From Escherichia coli (GTDB taxonomy: Bacteria > Pseudomonadota > Gammaproteobacteria > Enterobacterales > Enterobacteriaceae): a stretch of 51,502 nt of DNA. Shown here in pieces: positions 2,547 through 29,847 of the stretch. The notes under the pieces were generated by a model, which ran no database searches, was not told the DNA's origin, and worked only from the letters and a program-made list of their open reading frames with translations. The stretch's first letter is position 1, and each line of letters starts with the position of its first letter. The stretch is taken from the NCBI RefSeq assembly GCF_003334255.1, contig NZ_QOWU01000037.1; one strand, 5' to 3'. Position numbers and translations under genes: made by a program.

Positions 2547-2781
2547 CGTCCGGCGCGGTGCTGGTATCTGATTCCATCACCGCGTCGATATTACCAACAT
2601 CATATTCAGTCATTTCCGGTTCCGGTGGTGCTATAAACTCTCCGTCAGAATAGAACCAACCGACGCCTGCATCTATATGATCAATATTTATAATTTCGCA
2701 GTTAGAGAATAAATCACCCTCTCCATCCCAGATAATAATATTTTTCACCACGCCATGTTCAATCAGAGCAAAATTACTCAT
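2518..2781 (-). CDS. Tail fibre assembly protein (Tfa, expressed orientation)
   Basis: 87 aa; C-terminal [12 protein letters not shown] motif parallels [12 protein letters not shown] of the convergent tfa. Confidence 0.6.
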   Translation of the reverse strand: MSNFALIEHGVVKNIIIWDGEGDLFSNCEIINIDHIDAGVGWFYSDGEFIAPPEPEMTEYDVGNIDAVMESDTSTAPDVIWPELPEA

Positions 2782-3764
2782 CAGGCATACTCCTCAACAA
2801 TAACTATTCCCGGGGCACCGTCACCTCCCGATTGAGCCTCACTTCCGGCAGGTGCGCAGGCTCCGCCTCCGCCAGCACCAAAGCCCTCAGCTTTACCACC
2901 ACCACGTCCGCTGAATGATGAAGAACTTGCACCACCTATACCGCCTGAACCTAGTGGTGTATCCCCCCCGGTACCACCTGCAACAGCTTTAACAGAGATA
3001 ACCATTGCTCCTGGTGTTTTTGCACTACAGCGAAATGCTCTTAGTACAGTACCGGACGATGTCGGACTGGCACCCCATGAAATACCCTGAATATATGATG
3101 TGTTTGCAGATGCTCCCCCCGCGCCACCGCCTGTACCACCCGGTGCAGTTATCAGGGAACCGAAATAAGTTGTGCCACCTTCACTACCTGAATTTCTTCC
3201 GGCTCCCCCCCCTTTACCTGCAGCACCGATAATAACGTTGACTTCGAAATCATTATCAACCTCGAAAAATGCTTCAATAAATGCACCGCTCAATCCAGCT
3301 CCGGCTGTTGCCTGCTGATTTTCTGTTGTTTCAGGAACCCCACCGCCGCCGCCACCGCCACCAGAGGCAATGACCCTTATCTTTTTTGTCCCTGGTGTTG
3401 GGATATATTTTCCAGAGCTTTTAAAAATATTCGTGTTTAACAAACGACCAGAGAATCTGGCTTCTCCCAAACCAAGGTTTTCGAGAGCCGTTTGCACAGT
3501 GCCATCCGATTTGATATCGCCAAACGGATTCTTGCGGCTTAACAGCAGCGCACGAAGTGCGGTAAGCATCTGGTCATGCCGCCCTTTCTCCAGGCTGGCA
3601 CCGGAGGCCTCCACCACGCTACAAAGTTCTTCCTGCAACATGTCAAAGTAGTCATCATCCAGATCGGTGGCAGGTGTGCCGGTCTGGGGGTTACCACGGG
3701 TAAAACCGTTCTTACCCGCGCCGAACTTATCCTTCTGCGCGGTTTTCGTGTCTATACGATGCAT
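2781..3764 (-). CDS. Tail fibre protein (constant N-term 3481..3764 + variable Gly-rich C-term)
   Basis: [18 protein letters not shown]-terminus typical of Mu/P2-type fibres; poly-Gly tracts; ATGA overlap with tfa. Confidence 0.8.
3460..3480. repeat. Right inversion crossover site (pix/gix-like inverted repeat)
   Basis: Lies inside tail-fibre CDS at the constant/variable junction (about aa 95). Confidence 0.55.
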
Positions 3765-5401: not shown

Positions 5402-5816
5402 GCGTTATCGCACTCCACAGATCATCAAAAGAAATCATTACCGGTCCGTCACGACGCCAGAGAGTGATACTGTTACCCAGTTCATTAATCCCGGTGCGGC
5501 GGATATCCAGATCAATACGGGACACCACGCCATCATCAATCATCCATTGCAGGCATTCGCGGATATACCCCCTTACCGTCTGCACCAGCTGATTGGTCAG
5601 TTTGCTGCGCTGAAGCAGCCACAGTCGGGAGCCGTAACGGTCATTCTGTACCGCAGGCCAGGTATCCCCCCACCATCCCATCGGGACGTCGGCGTTGTCA
5701 TCAGGCTCCGCCCGCCGCCAGGTAAACAGGGAAATCACCACGGAGCGGGTCAGCGGATCCAGCGGTGCGCTGGCGCAGGTGCGTTTACCGTTCACCGTCA
5801 GCCACAGTTCCATCAT
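5388..5816 (-). CDS. Baseplate wedge protein (GPW/gp25-like, Mu gp46-like)
   Basis: 142 aa; size and position. Confidence 0.6.
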   Translation of the reverse strand: MMELWLTVNGKRTCASAPLDPLTRSVVISLFTWRRAEPDDNADVPMGWWGDTWPAVQNDRYGSRLWLLQRSKLTNQLVQTVRGYIRECLQWMIDDGVVSRIDLDIRRTGINELGNSITLWRRDGPVMISFDDLWSAITHGGQ

Positions 5817-23190: not shown

Positions 23191-23778
23191 AACCCCACCT
23201 CGCAGACAAAGCGGGTGTAAATTGAGGGAATACAACGTATCGCAAAAAAGCAGAAACGTAACAGACTCGGAGTCAGTGAATAACTCAGGTATTGAGTTAT
23301 CAGCTAATATCGAGACTCAAAAAATGGAAAAACCAGCTCGACGGCGGGTTTAAGCTGTGTGACGAAGTAACCACTCTTAACAGCATAACCAATTTTTTAC
23401 GTACGTAAACCACTGAATGATATTTATGAGAATGCTACCGAGTGTTCAAAACACCACCACAAATACATAAGAAAACCTCAACAAATAACCAATAAATAAT
23501 TTCCGGCGTTATTTTTAGTTAATTTAAATTAAACCATCGAATTATAGACCCCCCATAAATAACAGCCATTAATATAAATTAGCTAATAGGTTTATTTTTG
23601 TTCAAATAAGAGCCATAAATAGGTTTCGATAGAAAAAGTTCAGATAAAAATAGAGATCTACTTCACAAATTAAATGAGAAACTAAAACTTACATCTTGAA
23701 ATAATCACATTGATTAGATGAATATTTATCGCGCAGTGACATCATTTTTTAATAATAGTTCAAAAAAAAGGGCTCACG

Positions 23779-24861
23779 ATGAAAAAATTAACAGTGGCAA
23801 TTTCTGCTGTAGCTGCATCAGTACTGATGGCGATGTCTGCTCAGGCAGCTGAAATTTATAATAAAGACAGTAACAAGCTGGATCTGTACGGGAAAGTTAA
23901 TGCTAAGCACTACTTCTCCTCTAATGATGCAGATGATGGTGATACTACTTATGCCCGTCTTGGCTTCAAAGGTGAAACCCAAATCAACGATCAACTGACT
24001 GGTTTCGGTCAGTGGGAATATGAATTCAAAGGCAACCGCGCTGAATCTCAAGGTTCCTCCAAAGATAAAACCCGTCTTGCCTTCGCTGGCCTGAAATTCG
24101 GTGACTACGGCTCCATCGATTACGGCCGTAACTACGGTGTAGCATACGACATCGGTGCGTGGACTGACGTCCTGCCAGAATTCGGTGGTGACACTTGGAC
24201 TCAAACAGATGTGTTCATGACTGGTCGCACCACTGGTGTTGCAACTTATCGTAACAACGACTTCTTTGGTCTGGTTGATGGTCTGAACTTTGCTGCTCAG
24301 TATCAGGGTAAAAATGACCGCACTGACGTAACTGAAGCTAATGGTGATGGTTTCGGTTTCTCCACTACTTATGAGTATGAAGGATTCGGTGTAGGTGCAA
24401 CCTATGCTAAATCTGATCGCACTAATAATCAGGTTATCTACGGTAACAACGGTCTGAATGCTTCTGGTCAAAATGCTGAAGTATGGGCAGCTGGTCTGAA
24501 ATATGATGCGAACAACATCTATCTGGCCACCACCTATTCTGAAACCCAGAACATGACTGTTTTTGGTAATAACCATATTGCCAACAAAGCACAAAACTTC
24601 GAAGCTGTTGCACAATATCAGTTCGACTTCGGCCTGCGTCCATCCGTTGCTTACCTGCATTCTAAAGGAAAAGACTTGGGTGTTTGGGGTGATCAGGACC
24701 TGGTTGAATATGTTGATGTAGGTGCAACCTATTACTTCAACAAAAATATGTCCACTTTTGTTGACTACAAAATCAACCTGATTGATAAGAGCGATTTCAC
24801 GAAAGCATCTGGCGTTGCTACCGATGATATCGTTGCTGTAGGTATGGTTTACCAGTTCTAA
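23779..24861 (+). CDS. Outer-membrane porin, prophage-encoded (NmpC/Lc/OmpC family)
   Basis: 360 aa; signal peptide ...AMSAQA; AEIYNKD...; C-terminal YQF; paralog of phoE in the window. Confidence 0.9.
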
Positions 24862-26018: not shown

Positions 26019-26305
26019 GCCTTAATTACCCCCTCTTTCAGCCAGATAACCTGCGTTCTCGCCATACCTTCCAGCGCGCATTCTTTTGCATATCCAGCGT
26101 CAACAAAATGCGTGCGGCGGTCGATTTCGTCGTGGCAGGCAGAACATGCAATGGTGGCAATCAGGTCTGGCGGTTTCGTACCGGTGCCGCACAATCCAGT
26201 CAGCCGGATATGTGCCAGTACAGACGTTTCAGGGTTGCCATTACATACGCCAGGGATTCTTACCTGGCATTCCCGACCACGCGCTGCTTTTCTCAAATCA
26301 GCCAT
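26015..26305 (-). CDS. DUF1364/YbcO-like nin-region protein
   Basis: Cys-rich [14 protein letters not shown]...CSACHDEID; start at ATG 26305. Confidence 0.65.
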
Positions 26306-26468
26306 GATTCCTCCTTGCTGCCAGTCGCAACCATTTTTTATCAACCAGGCTAGCGGTATATCCGAGCAGTGTTGGTATTTCGGATGGTTTCAGCTCAGGC
26401 TTACGCTTACGACGATTTGGTACTCTGTAGATGTGTCCGTTCATGACACGAATAAGCGGTGTAGCCAT
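26298..26468 (-). CDS. NinE-like small basic protein (56 aa)
   Basis: Below ORF-track cutoff; [24 protein letters not shown]...[11 protein letters not shown]; TAATG coupling with upstream gene. Confidence 0.45.
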   Translation of the reverse strand: MATPLIRVMNGHIYRVPNRRKRKPELKPSEIPTLLGYTASLVDKKWLRLAARRNHG

Positions 26469-26923
26469 TACGCCTCCTGCTTGTCGCGCAGCAGCTGGAA
26501 CTCGCAGCTCTGCGGAATAGTCAGGTGGCAGCCAATATTCATCGCCCAGGCTTCAACCTTACACAGGAAGACATACATCTCTCCGCTATCAAGATTGGAG
26601 GTATGACGTAATGACTGAATGGTGGTGATTTCACCGGTTACGACATCAACCAGTTCTTTGGTTTCATAACCGAGATAAGTGTGTTTGAGAGCATCTTTTA
26701 CCCAAGCTGGAGTGGCGAACGTTTTACCCCTGCTGATGAGGTATTCACTGATTTCGCTGTACCACATGTGGCTGAGTGCATTCTGGGAAAGACTGCGTCT
26801 CTCGCGCCACGGTTTAAGCACCATGCGAAAGCATTTGCCGTCCTCCAGATAAGGCTGGATCTGCTGGCCGATAGCGGTGAAGTTACCGCGATGCAATTTG
26901 ATACCATCTTGTGGGAGGTTCAC
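26468..26923 (-). CDS. YbcN-like nin-region protein (DUF1367-like)
   Basis: 151 aa; ggaggtga SD; DLP12 ybcN-like by recall. Confidence 0.65.
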
Positions 26924-27110
26924 GCTTCACCTCCGCAGAGATCAAACGCTGGATGCAAAATATCGCAGGTGCATTTCTGCATCTGTGAATGGAGAAGAGA
27001 GGTTGGATTGTATGTGCGCATAAACGTCCCCGTTTAGCGCAGAAGTCACCGGAGTTGTTCAGGCTCCGATGACATGATTATGGCGGGTTGATTATGGAAA
27101 ATCAATCAAG

Positions 27111-27620
27111 CTATGTTTCATCGGCGAGGTCATCATCTGTGACAATCATGAGGTTAAAGAATGAAATAATGTTTAACCACTGCGAGTAAATATCGCTCGT
27201 CATGCTGGTTAGCTCCTCTCCGTGAAAGAAGGCATCAGGCCCAACCTCATAGTTGAGCTCTTCAAAAAGCTCCATGTTTAATTGGCTAATAAAGAATTGC
27301 TTCAGACCTTTCATTGCATCCTGATTGTTGGTATCTGAGTAATTTATTATGCTCCCCATTGCCATGTTCAAACATCGAACAATATTGGCTGCGTCATGAA
27401 AGCTCCAGTCAGCCCCTTTCTTTCCTTTTGAGTATGAATTCGCTCTCTCAGCGCAAGCTTTTAATGTCTCGTACAAATACTGCTTTCCTTGCAACTGCAA
27501 AGCTTTTTCGGATGTGGCCCTGCTAGCTTCTGAGGATCGCCATGCTAAATAAGTTGCTACCGCAGATGCGATAGCTGCAATCGCAGAAACTGCATCTATA
27601 CCGTTATCCCAACCAGACAT
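27111..27620 (-). CDS. Hypothetical single-pass membrane protein (169 aa), low GC
   Basis: N-terminal hydrophobic helix AVSAIAAIASAVATYLAW, no recognised domain; AT-richer than flanks by eye. Confidence 0.55.
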   Translation of the reverse strand: MSGWDNGIDAVSAIAAIASAVATYLAWRSSEASRATSEKALQLQGKQYLYETLKACAERANSYSKGKKGADWSFHDAANIVRCLNMAMGSIINYSDTNNQDAMKGLKQFFISQLNMELFEELNYEVGPDAFFHGEELTSMTSDIYSQWLNIISFFNLMIVTDDDLADET

Positions 27621-27646
27621 AAAAACCCCCTCGATTATTTGAGGGG
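27621..27646 (-). terminator. Intrinsic terminator-like hairpin immediately upstream of the 169-aa gene start
   Basis: Minus-strand cccctcaaataatcgaggggg followed by ttttt, abutting the ATG. Confidence 0.4.
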
Positions 27647-27669
27647 ATTATACCTTCAAAGTTTCCGCG

Positions 27670-27891
27670 CTACCCATTCATAACTAAAGCTTTTGCTTTC
27701 CAATGAGAAAGCGCGCTATGTTCGCTAGAACCTGTTTCGACTATATGGCGCCCCCAGGAATCTCCCCATGCTCTCCACGTTGACTTGCCGGTTTGGACTA
27801 CTGTGACAACATACTCTTTGCCGTCGATGTTAACTTCATGCTGCACTGGTGATTGTGATTTCATTTTCAAACCTCTGCTTATCGTTGACAT
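27670..27891 (-). CDS. Hypothetical small protein (73 aa)
   Basis: ORF; Trp-rich motif WRAWGDSWGRH; no recognised family. Confidence 0.45.
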   Translation of the reverse strand: MSTISRGLKMKSQSPVQHEVNIDGKEYVVTVVQTGKSTWRAWGDSWGRHIVETGSSEHSALSHWKAKALVMNG

Positions 27892-27915
27892 CGCAATTAT
27901 GCTGTCACGACATAA

Positions 27916-28722
27916 TCACTTCGCCTCCTGCTGCGGTGCTGCTGCGATCATGGCCTTCCATTGGTGGTCTGGGCTCCATAATCTACCGCCATCTTCACAC
28001 TCTTCCTGCGCCTGATGGTACGCCTCACGCATTTCTGGAGTTGGCTCCTTAGGAACCAGCACCCAACCATCCGGAATCACCGGAGAGTTGCTGACGGGCG
28101 ACTCGGAAATTTTTGGCGAAGAATCTAGGGCTGGCGCGGTCTGCATGGTGGTGGGCGACTCGGCTTTTTCGGCACCCTGAAGCATGGCGTCGCGGCATCC
28201 GTCATACGCTTCTTTCATAGCATCACGCACCCATCCGACAGGTTTCTGCTCAGTCAACTCACACCATTTCTCGAATGTGGGCACAGATACCGGAACTGGC
28301 GGTGCTGCATAAAGCGCCTGACAACTCCAGCCAGACCAGTGAGCACCCTCCGCTCTCTCATCATCTTCAGGGCGAACAAGCGTGACTTCGCTCGGGTGTT
28401 TCCTGTGTGACCACAGCCAGGCTACGGTTTCGGCATTGGCTGGCTCTGGCGGGGCGGAGTAAAAATACTCATCCTCAATCCCATCAACGGGCTTTGAGAA
28501 GCCGATAAAATCACCATAATGCCAAGGATAGGGGCCGTATGGCTCAGAGGTCACACGACGCCACCGGTGAATGGCAGGCTCCGCTTCGAGCGATGCCAGC
28601 GCGATACGCAGTGCCGCCAGCGTGTTGCTGTCGCCTTCGTCCAGACCGAACGGGATTTCATCTCTGGCTGCTTCCATGTCGGCAATTTTCTGCTGCAGCC
28701 ATTGTTTGGTAATAGTGCTCAT
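27916..28722 (-). CDS. Hypothetical prophage protein (possibly DUF550/DUF551-type)
   Basis: 268 aa, Pro/Trp-rich; ATGA overlap with downstream ead-like gene. Confidence 0.55.
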   Translation of the reverse strand: MSTITKQWLQQKIADMEAARDEIPFGLDEGDSNTLAALRIALASLEAEPAIHRWRRVTSEPYGPYPWHYGDFIGFSKPVDGIEDEYFYSAPPEPANAETVAWLWSHRKHPSEVTLVRPEDDERAEGAHWSGWSCQALYAAPPVPVSVPTFEKWCELTEQKPVGWVRDAMKEAYDGCRDAMLQGAEKAESPTTMQTAPALDSSPKISESPVSNSPVIPDGWVLVPKEPTPEMREAYHQAQEECEDGGRLWSPDHQWKAMIAAAPQQEAK

Positions 28723-29132
28723 GATGCCTCTCCTTTACCGGATGCGGCGGCGATCAGCTTCTGCGCCTGCTGAATGTCAGGATTGCCTGCAATCATCACT
28801 TCTGGCGCGTCACAGTCACCGCCAAGGTCAAGAATGCGCTCATGTCCGGTACGCAGGCAGGATTTGTATCCTGAAACCGTCTGCTTGAGCGATTCGGTCA
28901 GCACAGCAATCCTCTGGTCTTTGGCTTCCAGCTCATCCAGCAGCGCCAGCACTGTGGCTGGGTTGGCTACGGAGTTCAGCGCGTTCAAGGCAGTGATATC
29001 TGCATCAAGCTGAGTTCCTTCTGCCAGTGAGATATCGAAAATGTCATCAGGCGGCATAACACTAAGGCGCTCATGTGCACCAACTGCTGCCTCAGCGATT
29101 TCACGTAATGCGCGTTTGTCGATGTTGCTCAT
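28719..29132 (-). CDS. ead/Ea22-like protein
   Basis: 137 aa starting MSNIDK; coiled-coil-like. Confidence 0.55.
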   Translation of the reverse strand: MSNIDKRALREIAEAAVGAHERLSVMPPDDIFDISLAEGTQLDADITALNALNSVANPATVLALLDELEAKDQRIAVLTESLKQTVSGYKSCLRTGHERILDLGGDCDAPEVMIAGNPDIQQAQKLIAAASGKGEAS

Positions 29133-29147
29133 TCTTCATCCTCCAAC

Positions 29148-29360
29148 TCAGATACGGCGTCCATTACATCTGAGCCGCGAATGGTTTCGAATGCCACACA
29201 AGACCATTTCAAAGCACAGGCGCTCATGCGGGTGCGGAGATTGCCAATACTTGAAGCCAGGACGATGCGAATAGCCCTGCATCGCATAAAACTCTCCGGC
29301 CAATTCAATGGCGGCATCCACCAGTTCACGGTTTGTCATTGGTTTGTCGATGTTGCTCAT
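29148..29360 (-). CDS. Hypothetical protein with ead-like N-terminus (paralogous start)
   Basis: Starts MSNIDK; 19-nt identical 5' end with the neighbouring gene (29114..29132 vs 29342..29360). Confidence 0.45.
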   Translation of the reverse strand: MSNIDKPMTNRELVDAAIELAGEFYAMQGYSHRPGFKYWQSPHPHERLCFEMVLCGIRNHSRLRCNGRRI

Positions 29361-29557
29361 TGGGCGGCCTCCTGGATTAACTTTTCGAGAATGGCATCAA
29401 GGGCTTTCCGTTTTCCGATATACCCGCCACCAACCCACTCTCCACGAAGCAAGGCGTAATATTTCCCGTCGTCTTCGTGATACGGTCCTCGGATAGACCA
29501 GTCGGTTGTGATGGCGTCGATAGCCTTTTTAGTTTCTGCGAAATCCATCATGCTCAT
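29357..29557 (-). CDS. Hypothetical protein
   Basis: ORF 29357..29614; start placed at MSMMDFAE (29557), directly after ren stop. Confidence 0.45.
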   Translation of the reverse strand: MSMMDFAETKKAIDAITTDWSIRGPYHEDDGKYYALLRGEWVGGGYIGKRKALDAILEKLIQEAAQ

Positions 29558-29847
29558 ACCCCTACCCTCCCCCAAACCATCAACACCCGCTTCATCGCGG
29601 CACTCTGGCGACACTCCTTAAAAATCAGGTTAGTGCTCACCTTTCCTTCCCGTTCTTCCCTGGTAGCGAATCTGTAATACACCGTTCGCCAGACCTTACC
29701 ATCTATGACCAAGATTCCTGCCCGCGCCATTTTAGCCGCAGCCTGATTTATGCTGGTTACTGTTGCGCCTGTTACCGCGGCAACGTCCAGCGCACAGAAG
29801 CTCTTATGCGTCCCCAGGTAATAAATAATTGCCTCTTTACCCGTCAT
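29554..29847 (-). CDS. ren: Ren protein (lambda Ren-like)
   Basis: MTGKEAIIYYLGTHKSFCALDVAAVTGATVTSINQAAAKMARAG... near-identical to lambda Ren. Confidence 0.85.
   Translation of the reverse strand: MTGKEAIIYYLGTHKSFCALDVAAVTGATVTSINQAAAKMARAGILVIDGKVWRTVYYRFATREEREGKVSTNLIFKECRQSAAMKRVLMVWGRVGV

Follow-up and report, generated by a model that had tools for sequence, protein, structure and literature searches.

Two neighbouring genes in the ren–ninB interval of an Escherichia coli lambdoid prophage: separate cargo cassettes and a portable hairpin leader

Introduction

Do two short, adjacent and co-oriented prophage genes form a defence module with its own control element? We examined this question in a window of 51,502 nucleotides (nt) of Escherichia coli DNA (NCBI RefSeq assembly GCF_003334255.1, contig NZ_QOWU01000037.1; the window is this whole stretch). 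A lambdoid prophage in the window carries, between ren and ninB, a gene for a protein of 169 amino acids (aa) and, upstream of it, a small open reading frame (ORF). An earlier note on this DNA had proposed that the pair fits a superinfection-exclusion or abortive-infection module and that a hairpin plus T-tract at the start of the 169-aa gene gives it separate transcriptional or translational control. We found that the two genes are independent single-gene cargo cassettes and not a module, and that the hairpin is a generic portable cassette leader and not a defence-specific control. That is, adjacency and the hairpin suggested a defence operon, and the comparative context corrects that reading. 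Both ORFs were confirmed on the minus strand at the positions first reported, with a shorter reading frame for the small one, and the interval is laid out as follows.

27111..27620, minus strand: 169-aa cargo gene (hypothetical protein WP_000017329.1 in the annotation of the Prokaryotic Genome Annotation Pipeline, PGAP; member of PHROG 1779)
27670..27864, minus strand: 64-aa gene with its conserved start at the second Met; no PGAP feature
29554–29847: ren, on one side of the two genes
26468–26923: ninB (ybcN), GTG start at 26923, on the other side

Results

Co-occurrence of the two genes

We compared the neighbourhoods of both genes across related prophages. One segment, from ~27900 to ~27060, is common to E. 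coli and Klebsiella prophages at 88–100% identity, and the genes flanking it differ on either side; over short timescales, the two genes move together. A near-identical 169-aa gene is present in 26 E. coli genomes, and the small ORF accompanies it in about 25 of them. Across all loci, a tblastn search with the small ORF found it only beside 169-aa copies of at least 95% identity. In this search, homologues that share 71% (E. coli), 62% (Enterobacter), 59%, 55% (Serratia) or 49% (Scandinavium) identity with the 169-aa gene had no copy of the small ORF beside them. In addition, variants of the small ORF have other partners. The 81%-identical variant is followed, at the same 50-nt spacing, by a gene resembling that of DNA polymerase III theta, the 59% variant is followed by a DUF1643-like gene, and in E. 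coli A2 the gene coupled to a 58-aa relative is an unrelated one of 210 aa. The small ORF is missing beside diverged 169-aa homologues and its own variants keep other company, which indicates random co-occurrence, the finding that the earlier note had itself named as contrary to its proposal. Co-occurrence across diverged alleles and contexts, by which we would recognize a two-gene module, was not observed.

A two-component superinfection-exclusion or abortive-infection module, made of the 64-aa and 169-aa genes with their own control element, is thus very improbable. Adjacency, shared orientation, a GC content below that of the flanks, the single segment exchanged between E. coli and Klebsiella prophages and the joint presence in nearly all genomes with the near-identical gene all speak for it. 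However, beyond the recent shared segment the genes part company both ways, so that the co-occurrence data largely refute the module; the control hairpin is generic, as set out below, and neither protein matches a defence family.

The hairpin leader of the 169-aa gene

The junction between the two genes consists of the following elements.

27621..27652, minus strand: junction leader, with TATAAT, a hairpin that holds the Shine–Dalgarno (SD) sequence, and a T-run up to the ATG
27652–27647, minus strand: TATAAT, directly 5' of the hairpin
27649–27641, minus strand: 5' arm of the stem, AATCCCCTC
27640–27633, minus strand: hairpin loop of 8 nt, AAATAATC
27632–27624, minus strand: 3' arm of the stem, GAGGGGGTT, containing the SD sequence

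The hairpin and T-tract first noticed at the start of the 169-aa gene, with GAGGGGG in the stem, proved real. The stem (27649–27624) has 9 pairs including 5 G-C, closes an 8-nt loop and runs directly into UUUAUG, with 5 consecutive T. GAGGGGG (27632–27626) belongs to the 3' arm, with 5 nt between it and the ATG, and the predicted free energy of the hairpin is −14.2 kcal/mol. The pattern CCCCTC-N5-11-GAGGGG occurs once in the window versus 0 in 100 shuffles. A G+C-rich stem-loop, a T-run directly after it and a place in the ren–nin interval give the element the form of an intrinsic terminator.

The same leader was found ahead of quite different genes. TATAAT-CCCCTC, a variable loop of 7–9 nt, GAGGGG and an ATG after 5–7 nt were seen at three junction types: between the small ORF and the 169-aa gene, between the small ORF and a theta-like gene, and between an unrelated 57-aa ORF and a 71%-identical homologue of the 169-aa gene. 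An exact-pattern scan placed the leader in at least 120 viral contigs. Among the matches listed, an ATG stood 5–9 nt past the stem in 91 of 124 hairpin copies, and the ORFs that follow fell into at least 10 unrelated clusters. The downstream genes include homologues of DNA polymerase III theta (at least 58 copies), an HNH endonuclease, a predicted protein with three transmembrane (TM) helices and several families of unknown function. Since the same leader precedes at least 10 unrelated families, the hairpin does not support a control peculiar to the 169-aa gene. From its sequence, it can be read as a terminator of the tR2 type turned portable leader, which supplies the ribosome-binding site of whichever gene follows. 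A fixed slot order of hairpin, one gene and ninB leader was considered as a general rule and dropped, as it occurred in only 30 of 125 hairpin copies.

The 169-aa protein and its family

We searched for relatives of the 169-aa protein, which had been described as belonging to no recognizable family. This held in Pfam, NCBIfam, PADLOC and the PDB, where sequence searches gave no match, and failed in PHROG: residues 3–167 match positions 2–169 of the 169-position profile of PHROG 1779 (E = 2.5e-77), the sole PHROG match and a family of unknown function. A profile search of 1.84 billion representative proteins gave 36 clusters, nearly all of them single-domain proteins of 150–180 aa. The last large protein search, with the broad family alignment as query, added no further names or domains. 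PADLOC-DB v2 contained no family matching the 169-aa or the small protein at E ≤ 1, and the fold comparison of the 169-aa model gave no informative match. No result ties either protein to superinfection exclusion or abortive infection; for the 169-aa protein, a part in exclusion or defence is a possibility.

The single N-terminal TM helix proposed earlier is supported by prediction and by conservation.

27540..27599, minus strand, codons 8–27 of the 169-aa gene: predicted single TM helix, IDAVSAIAAIASAVATYLAW, rich in small residues, from the Kyte–Doolittle 19-residue mean (KD19) and flanking charges

Residues 8–27 are the sole such hydrophobic segment (KD19 1.74). In nearly all full-length relatives KD19 is 1.5–2.5, with two near 1.0, and every full-length member keeps an aromatic/acidic N-terminal cap, an Ala/Gly/Ser-rich helix of ~20 residues and then Lys/Arg. 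The flanks of the helix, acidic before and Lys/Arg after, predict an inner-membrane protein with its N-terminus out, its C-terminus in and its body in the cytoplasm. The domain after the helix is acidic and helical in all members, of ~140 residues, and the whole protein is acidic in composition (23 Asp + Glu versus 12 Lys + Arg). The AlphaFold2 (AF2) model is all helical, with a predicted local distance difference test score (pLDDT) of 70. In the wide family alignment, S33 is the only invariant residue, and M1, Q44, L53, N61, W72, A87, L114, P128 and W148 are nearly invariant. No acidic, basic or histidine residue is among the nearly invariant positions; therefore, no catalytic-type constellation is conserved in the family.

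In one relative of 288 aa (P0061; L033 4001–4867, L034 3582–4448), the domain of the 169-aa family is joined to a predicted 3-TM protein. The anchor follows the 3-TM protein in this fusion, which fits the N-out/C-in topology. The 3-TM protein also stands alone behind the same hairpin leader in L050 (5927–5532), and in L031 it is encoded (2621–3031) ~1 kb upstream of a family member. The 3-TM protein and the 169-aa family may be functionally linked.

Every family context seen was the early region of a temperate phage or prophage. The gene occupies slots before ninB or DUF1367 and also the early-left arm near int; it runs in the direction of the early operon in all of them, no neighbour is constant, and a non-coding gap lay ahead of it in every context checked. 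The 169-aa gene is a self-contained, horizontally exchanged unit, and its family is a small one of enterobacterial temperate phages. Among complete E. coli genomes, the near-identical gene was present in 26 and a diverged type in about 175 more, giving 201 of 5426 (~4%); the diverged type includes O104:H4 strains. The isolated phages PhiR26_1 and PhiR5_1 carry the diverged type, annotated as 'hypothetical protein', and their records appear to come from the temperate-phage panel of the Brenes and Laub group. The library searched contained no paper on the 169-aa family and one passing mention of DUF4760. In a rearranged prophage of E. coli 2020CK-00188 (L002, locus ~5558–5782), similarity to the window breaks off within the 169-aa gene, ~13 nt from its 5' end; gam-bet-exo is annotated next to it on the opposite strand, and the protein N-terminus there differs.

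Membership in Pfam DUF4760 (PF15956) was considered because of UniProt names in the Foldseek output and was rejected after three Pfam scans. UniProt gives that name to some relatives (55% and 30% identity), and size and N-terminal helix are similar to those of the 169-aa protein. However, the DUF4760 model did not match the 169-aa protein at E ≤ 10, nor any of 21 close and 29 broad family members at E ≤ 0.1. In Foldseek, the relatives named DUF4760 by UniProt matched strongly, whereas independent DUF4760 proteins matched weakly (E 0.03–0.8, TM-score about 0.4–0.5). DUF4760 is itself uncharacterized.

The small gene

The small ORF was first read as a 73-aa protein without a recognizable family. 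It is a gene and has no family match, and its true length is 64 aa with the start at 27864. All five database relatives are 64 aa long and begin at the second Met; in Klebsiella, the upstream ATG of the 73-aa reading is CTA, and AGGAG or AGAGG lies 7 nt 5' of the second ATG (M10). A length of exactly 64 codons is constant in four variants, the most distant of them 59% identical. The ratio of nonsynonymous to synonymous substitutions (dN/dS) is 0.10–0.37, with differences concentrated at third positions (e.g., 23 of 35), the pattern expected of a real gene under purifying selection. The AF2 model is compact, with four strands and a helix (pLDDT 91.7), and 4 of the 64 residues are Trp; the fold comparison gave no informative match.

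The small ORF is complete and at least 99% identical in 18 listed E. coli records, and PGAP placed no feature over it in any of them. This omission and the lack of a family match are what would suggest a chance ORF or a non-coding spacer. We regard that explanation as barely credible in view of the constant length, the low dN/dS, the third-position bias, the good SD sequence before the start and the confident AF2 model; gene callers, moreover, do predict the ORF in Klebsiella assemblies. The conserved 64-aa gene is thus a gap in the RefSeq annotation of these E. coli prophages.

Two domain assignments were tried for the small protein. An AP2-type domain, the initial idea, was not borne out. 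A double-stranded-RNA-binding domain (dsRBD) found no sequence-level match: the 64-aa protein has no N-terminal helix and an extra strand in its place. The RNA-contact motif of the dsRBD is KKxAK, and the 64-aa protein reads SSEHSA where this motif is expected, at the start of the last helix.

A palindromic motif, ATGTCGTGACAGCAT, lies at 27899–27913 on the minus strand, just upstream of the small ORF, and recurs upstream of the 59%-identical variant in L123. It may be a left-hand junction or an operator of the small-ORF cassette.

Prophage setting and composition

The host element is a DLP12-like lambdoid prophage with its early-right operon on the minus strand, and the window is identical to the E. 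coli G1/2 chromosome across the 901 bases compared. The early-right gene order is O, P, ren, four small ORFs (one frameshifted), the two cargo genes, a 33-aa ylcH-like ORF, ybcN/ninB, ninE, ybcO, rusA, ylcG and quuD. The two genes therefore lie between ren and ninB, as the earlier note had placed them, and do not adjoin ren, since four annotated ORFs separate the small ORF from it. They had also been described as AT-richer than their flanks. This is real and modest: GC is 43.1% in the 169-aa gene and 46.7% in the small ORF versus 50–57% in the flanking genes and a window mean of 50.9%, and the 169-aa gene falls at about the 11th percentile of 510-bp windows.

The description of the region as variable cargo was also borne out, as other phages carry other genes in the slot. 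In PhiR26_1, the ren–ninB interval that holds a member of the 169-aa family also holds PD-lambda-1, a known defence system, on the opposite strand (L024 743–2245); its location marks the interval as a hotspot of defence and cargo genes. Both genes are accessory cargo in a hypervariable slot between the replication/ren block and the ninB leader. Overall, the sequence-level observation was largely right after two corrections, the start of the small ORF and the assignment to PHROG 1779. What remains is an uncharacterized single-gene membrane-protein family in a cargo hotspot, together with two non-coding elements of some regulatory interest.

The ninB leader

The second of these elements begins directly downstream of the 169-aa stop codon.

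27077..27105, minus strand: promoter-like box TTGATT–17 nt–CATAAT, the right boundary of the variable slot and part of the ninB leader
27072–27046, minus strand: hairpin 1, with fixed loop CCUGAACAA and covarying stem
27040–27016, minus strand: hairpin 2, with GGGA (GNRA) tetraloop and covarying stem

Both hexamers of the box are invariant in 17 diverged copies, and TTGATT...AATCAA is also an inverted repeat. The leader precedes ninB in dozens of lambdoid loci, whichever gene is upstream, and the 56-bp flank that includes the box has matches in 369 of 5426 E. coli genomes and in several phages. Both hairpins show compensatory substitutions in the stems and fixed loops. This covariation was obtained by loop-anchored folding of each variant; RNAalifold gave the TTGAT/ATCAA repeat alone, since the MAFFT alignment did not match up the indel-rich stems. 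Rfam gave no family across 26300–28300. The 33-aa ylcH-like ORF (26920–27021, minus strand) has its start codon (27021) inside the 3' arm of hairpin 2, and its stop overlaps the GTG start of ninB (26923), which suggests a leader ORF translationally coupled to ninB. The ninB leader may combine a promoter of the nin genes with a structured regulatory or antitermination leader. Together with the portable terminator/SD leader, it may tell more about how accessory genes are plugged in and expressed in lambdoid phages than the genes themselves do.

Other features of the prophage were noted in passing. PGAP annotates a frameshifted pseudogene at 29129–29360, among the small ORFs between ren and an ead/Ea22-like gene. 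An intact OmpC/NmpC-like porin gene (23779–24861, plus strand) lies between Q and the lysis genes, with a very AT-rich tract (23350–23800, GC 0.27–0.30) 5' of it, and an iss/bor-like lipoprotein gene stands further on from the porin gene in the G1/2 record.

Discussion

Possible role of the 169-aa protein

We propose that the 169-aa protein would be an anchored inner-membrane protein, its N-terminus facing outward and the bulk of the chain cytoplasmic, and that it is probably non-enzymatic, its TM helix packing against its own copies or against a host inner-membrane protein. Most transcription of the gene would occur as part of the early-right transcript, antiterminated once induction or infection has taken place; the hairpin would stop unmodified transcription, and the SD-containing stem would damp translation. 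We hold the architectural part of this reading with considerable confidence. The function that we attach to it, an inner-membrane conflict function in the exclusion of, or defence against, other phages, is a guess, tentative even as the likeliest specific role considered. For architecture and function jointly, we put the probability at roughly 0.5.

Several points weigh against this reading. Directly 5' of the hairpin is a perfect TATAAT, with TGnTATATAAT in many copies, and one relative (L033) keeps TATAAT and the SD sequence and has lost the 5' arm; expression of the 169-aa gene from a promoter of its own in lysogens is therefore possible. Several family members (Serratia L009, L030 and L031) lack the hairpin, and copies such as L014 have no clean U-tract. 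The TM topology is based on hydropathy and charge heuristics, and AF2 confidence is low for residues 1–40. Finally, no homology backs any function, and the PADLOC search was negative.

A lytic-phase role is about as likely as the conflict function, and equally tentative. The protein would then be an early accessory factor in counter-defence or host takeover, or a modulator of a host inner-membrane machine. The gene is co-directional with delayed-early operons in both the right and the left arm, a terminator-like hairpin would tie its expression to antitermination, and most family members have no promoter-like match upstream, so that no consistent sigma-70 promoter of its own emerges. Accessory genes of replication and recombination, theta and HNH genes among them, use the same slot. 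However, there is no homology to a known anti-defence or takeover protein, and the sporadic spread over E. coli genomes fits either role.

Less probable, in our judgement, is a classical moron expressed in the lysogen. TATAAT at 27652–27647 would be its −10 element, and the product would protect the lysogen, for instance by keeping incoming DNA from crossing the inner membrane; transcripts starting inside the 5' arm would have a free SD sequence, whereas read-through early transcripts would terminate or occlude it. TATAAT is kept in the window, in Klebsiella and in the 71% homologue despite different upstream genes, but no conserved −35 element was found upstream of it, the best candidate in the window (TGGGTA-18-TATAAT) scoring 9 of 12. 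The frequent TGnTATATAAT could be an extended −10 element, yet, as is usual in terminators, the T-tract also has a pairing partner in the A/T flank. TATAAT and SD sequence without a stem in L033, the lower GC, the non-coding gaps on both sides and a defence system in the same slot of a related phage are all in keeping with a moron; against these stand the use of the same leader by genes with no obvious part to play in a lysogen (theta homologues and an HNH endonuclease), the lack of a terminator-like site between 27111 and the box at 27105–27077, and the constant orientation with the early operon. A more specific combination is more doubtful still, namely that the family is a single-protein inner-membrane anti-phage factor, of the exclusion or abortive type, and that the TATAAT–hairpin–SD leader acts as a two-state switch. 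Transcripts from the embedded −10 element, without the 5' arm, would be translated in the lysogen, and read-through early transcripts would terminate or carry a masked ribosome-binding site.

None of the tool results separates the defence, lytic-phase and lysogen-moron roles. The 169-aa protein is a clean single-gene candidate for functional screens, being membrane-anchored by prediction, specific to temperate phages and encoded in an interval with a precedent for defence.

Comparison with known systems

The junction leader resembles lambda tR2 in position, as both follow the replication/ren block and stand ahead of the nin genes; the lambda site is in the ren–ninB spacer, the region removed by the nin5 deletion. 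Both have a G+C-rich stem, an 8-nt loop and a T-run followed by the start of the next gene, and their predicted stabilities are close (−15.7 kcal/mol for tR2 versus the value given above for the hairpin here). They differ in the SD sequence, which in lambda follows the T-tract and precedes the ninB ATG, whereas here it lies in the 3' arm with the ATG 5 nt on. In addition, a perfect TATAAT abuts the 5' arm here, and the element is portable and precedes many cargo genes; termination here is predicted from sequence.

The 169-aa gene shares with morons, in the concept of Juhala and Hendrix (HK97 gp15, lambda bor, lom), a lower GC, a dispensable type of gene, non-coding gaps and horizontal exchange. 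Composition and insertion agree with the concept: its GC is below that of the flanks, and in lambda tR2 and ninB come immediately after ren, whereas other phages carry other genes in the slot. As for a promoter of its own, the perfect TATAAT is present and the best −35 is TGGGTA at 18-nt spacing; a terminator of its own was not found between the stop (27111) and the promoter-like box (27105). Unlike a moron, the gene lies within the early operon and is always co-directional with it. With the exclusion proteins P22 SieA, lambda/P22 SieB and HK97 gp15, which are small prophage membrane proteins encoded by single genes at comparable accessory locations, the 169-aa protein shares this general type; it differs from them in showing no sequence or profile similarity and in that its bulk is predicted to be cytoplasmic.

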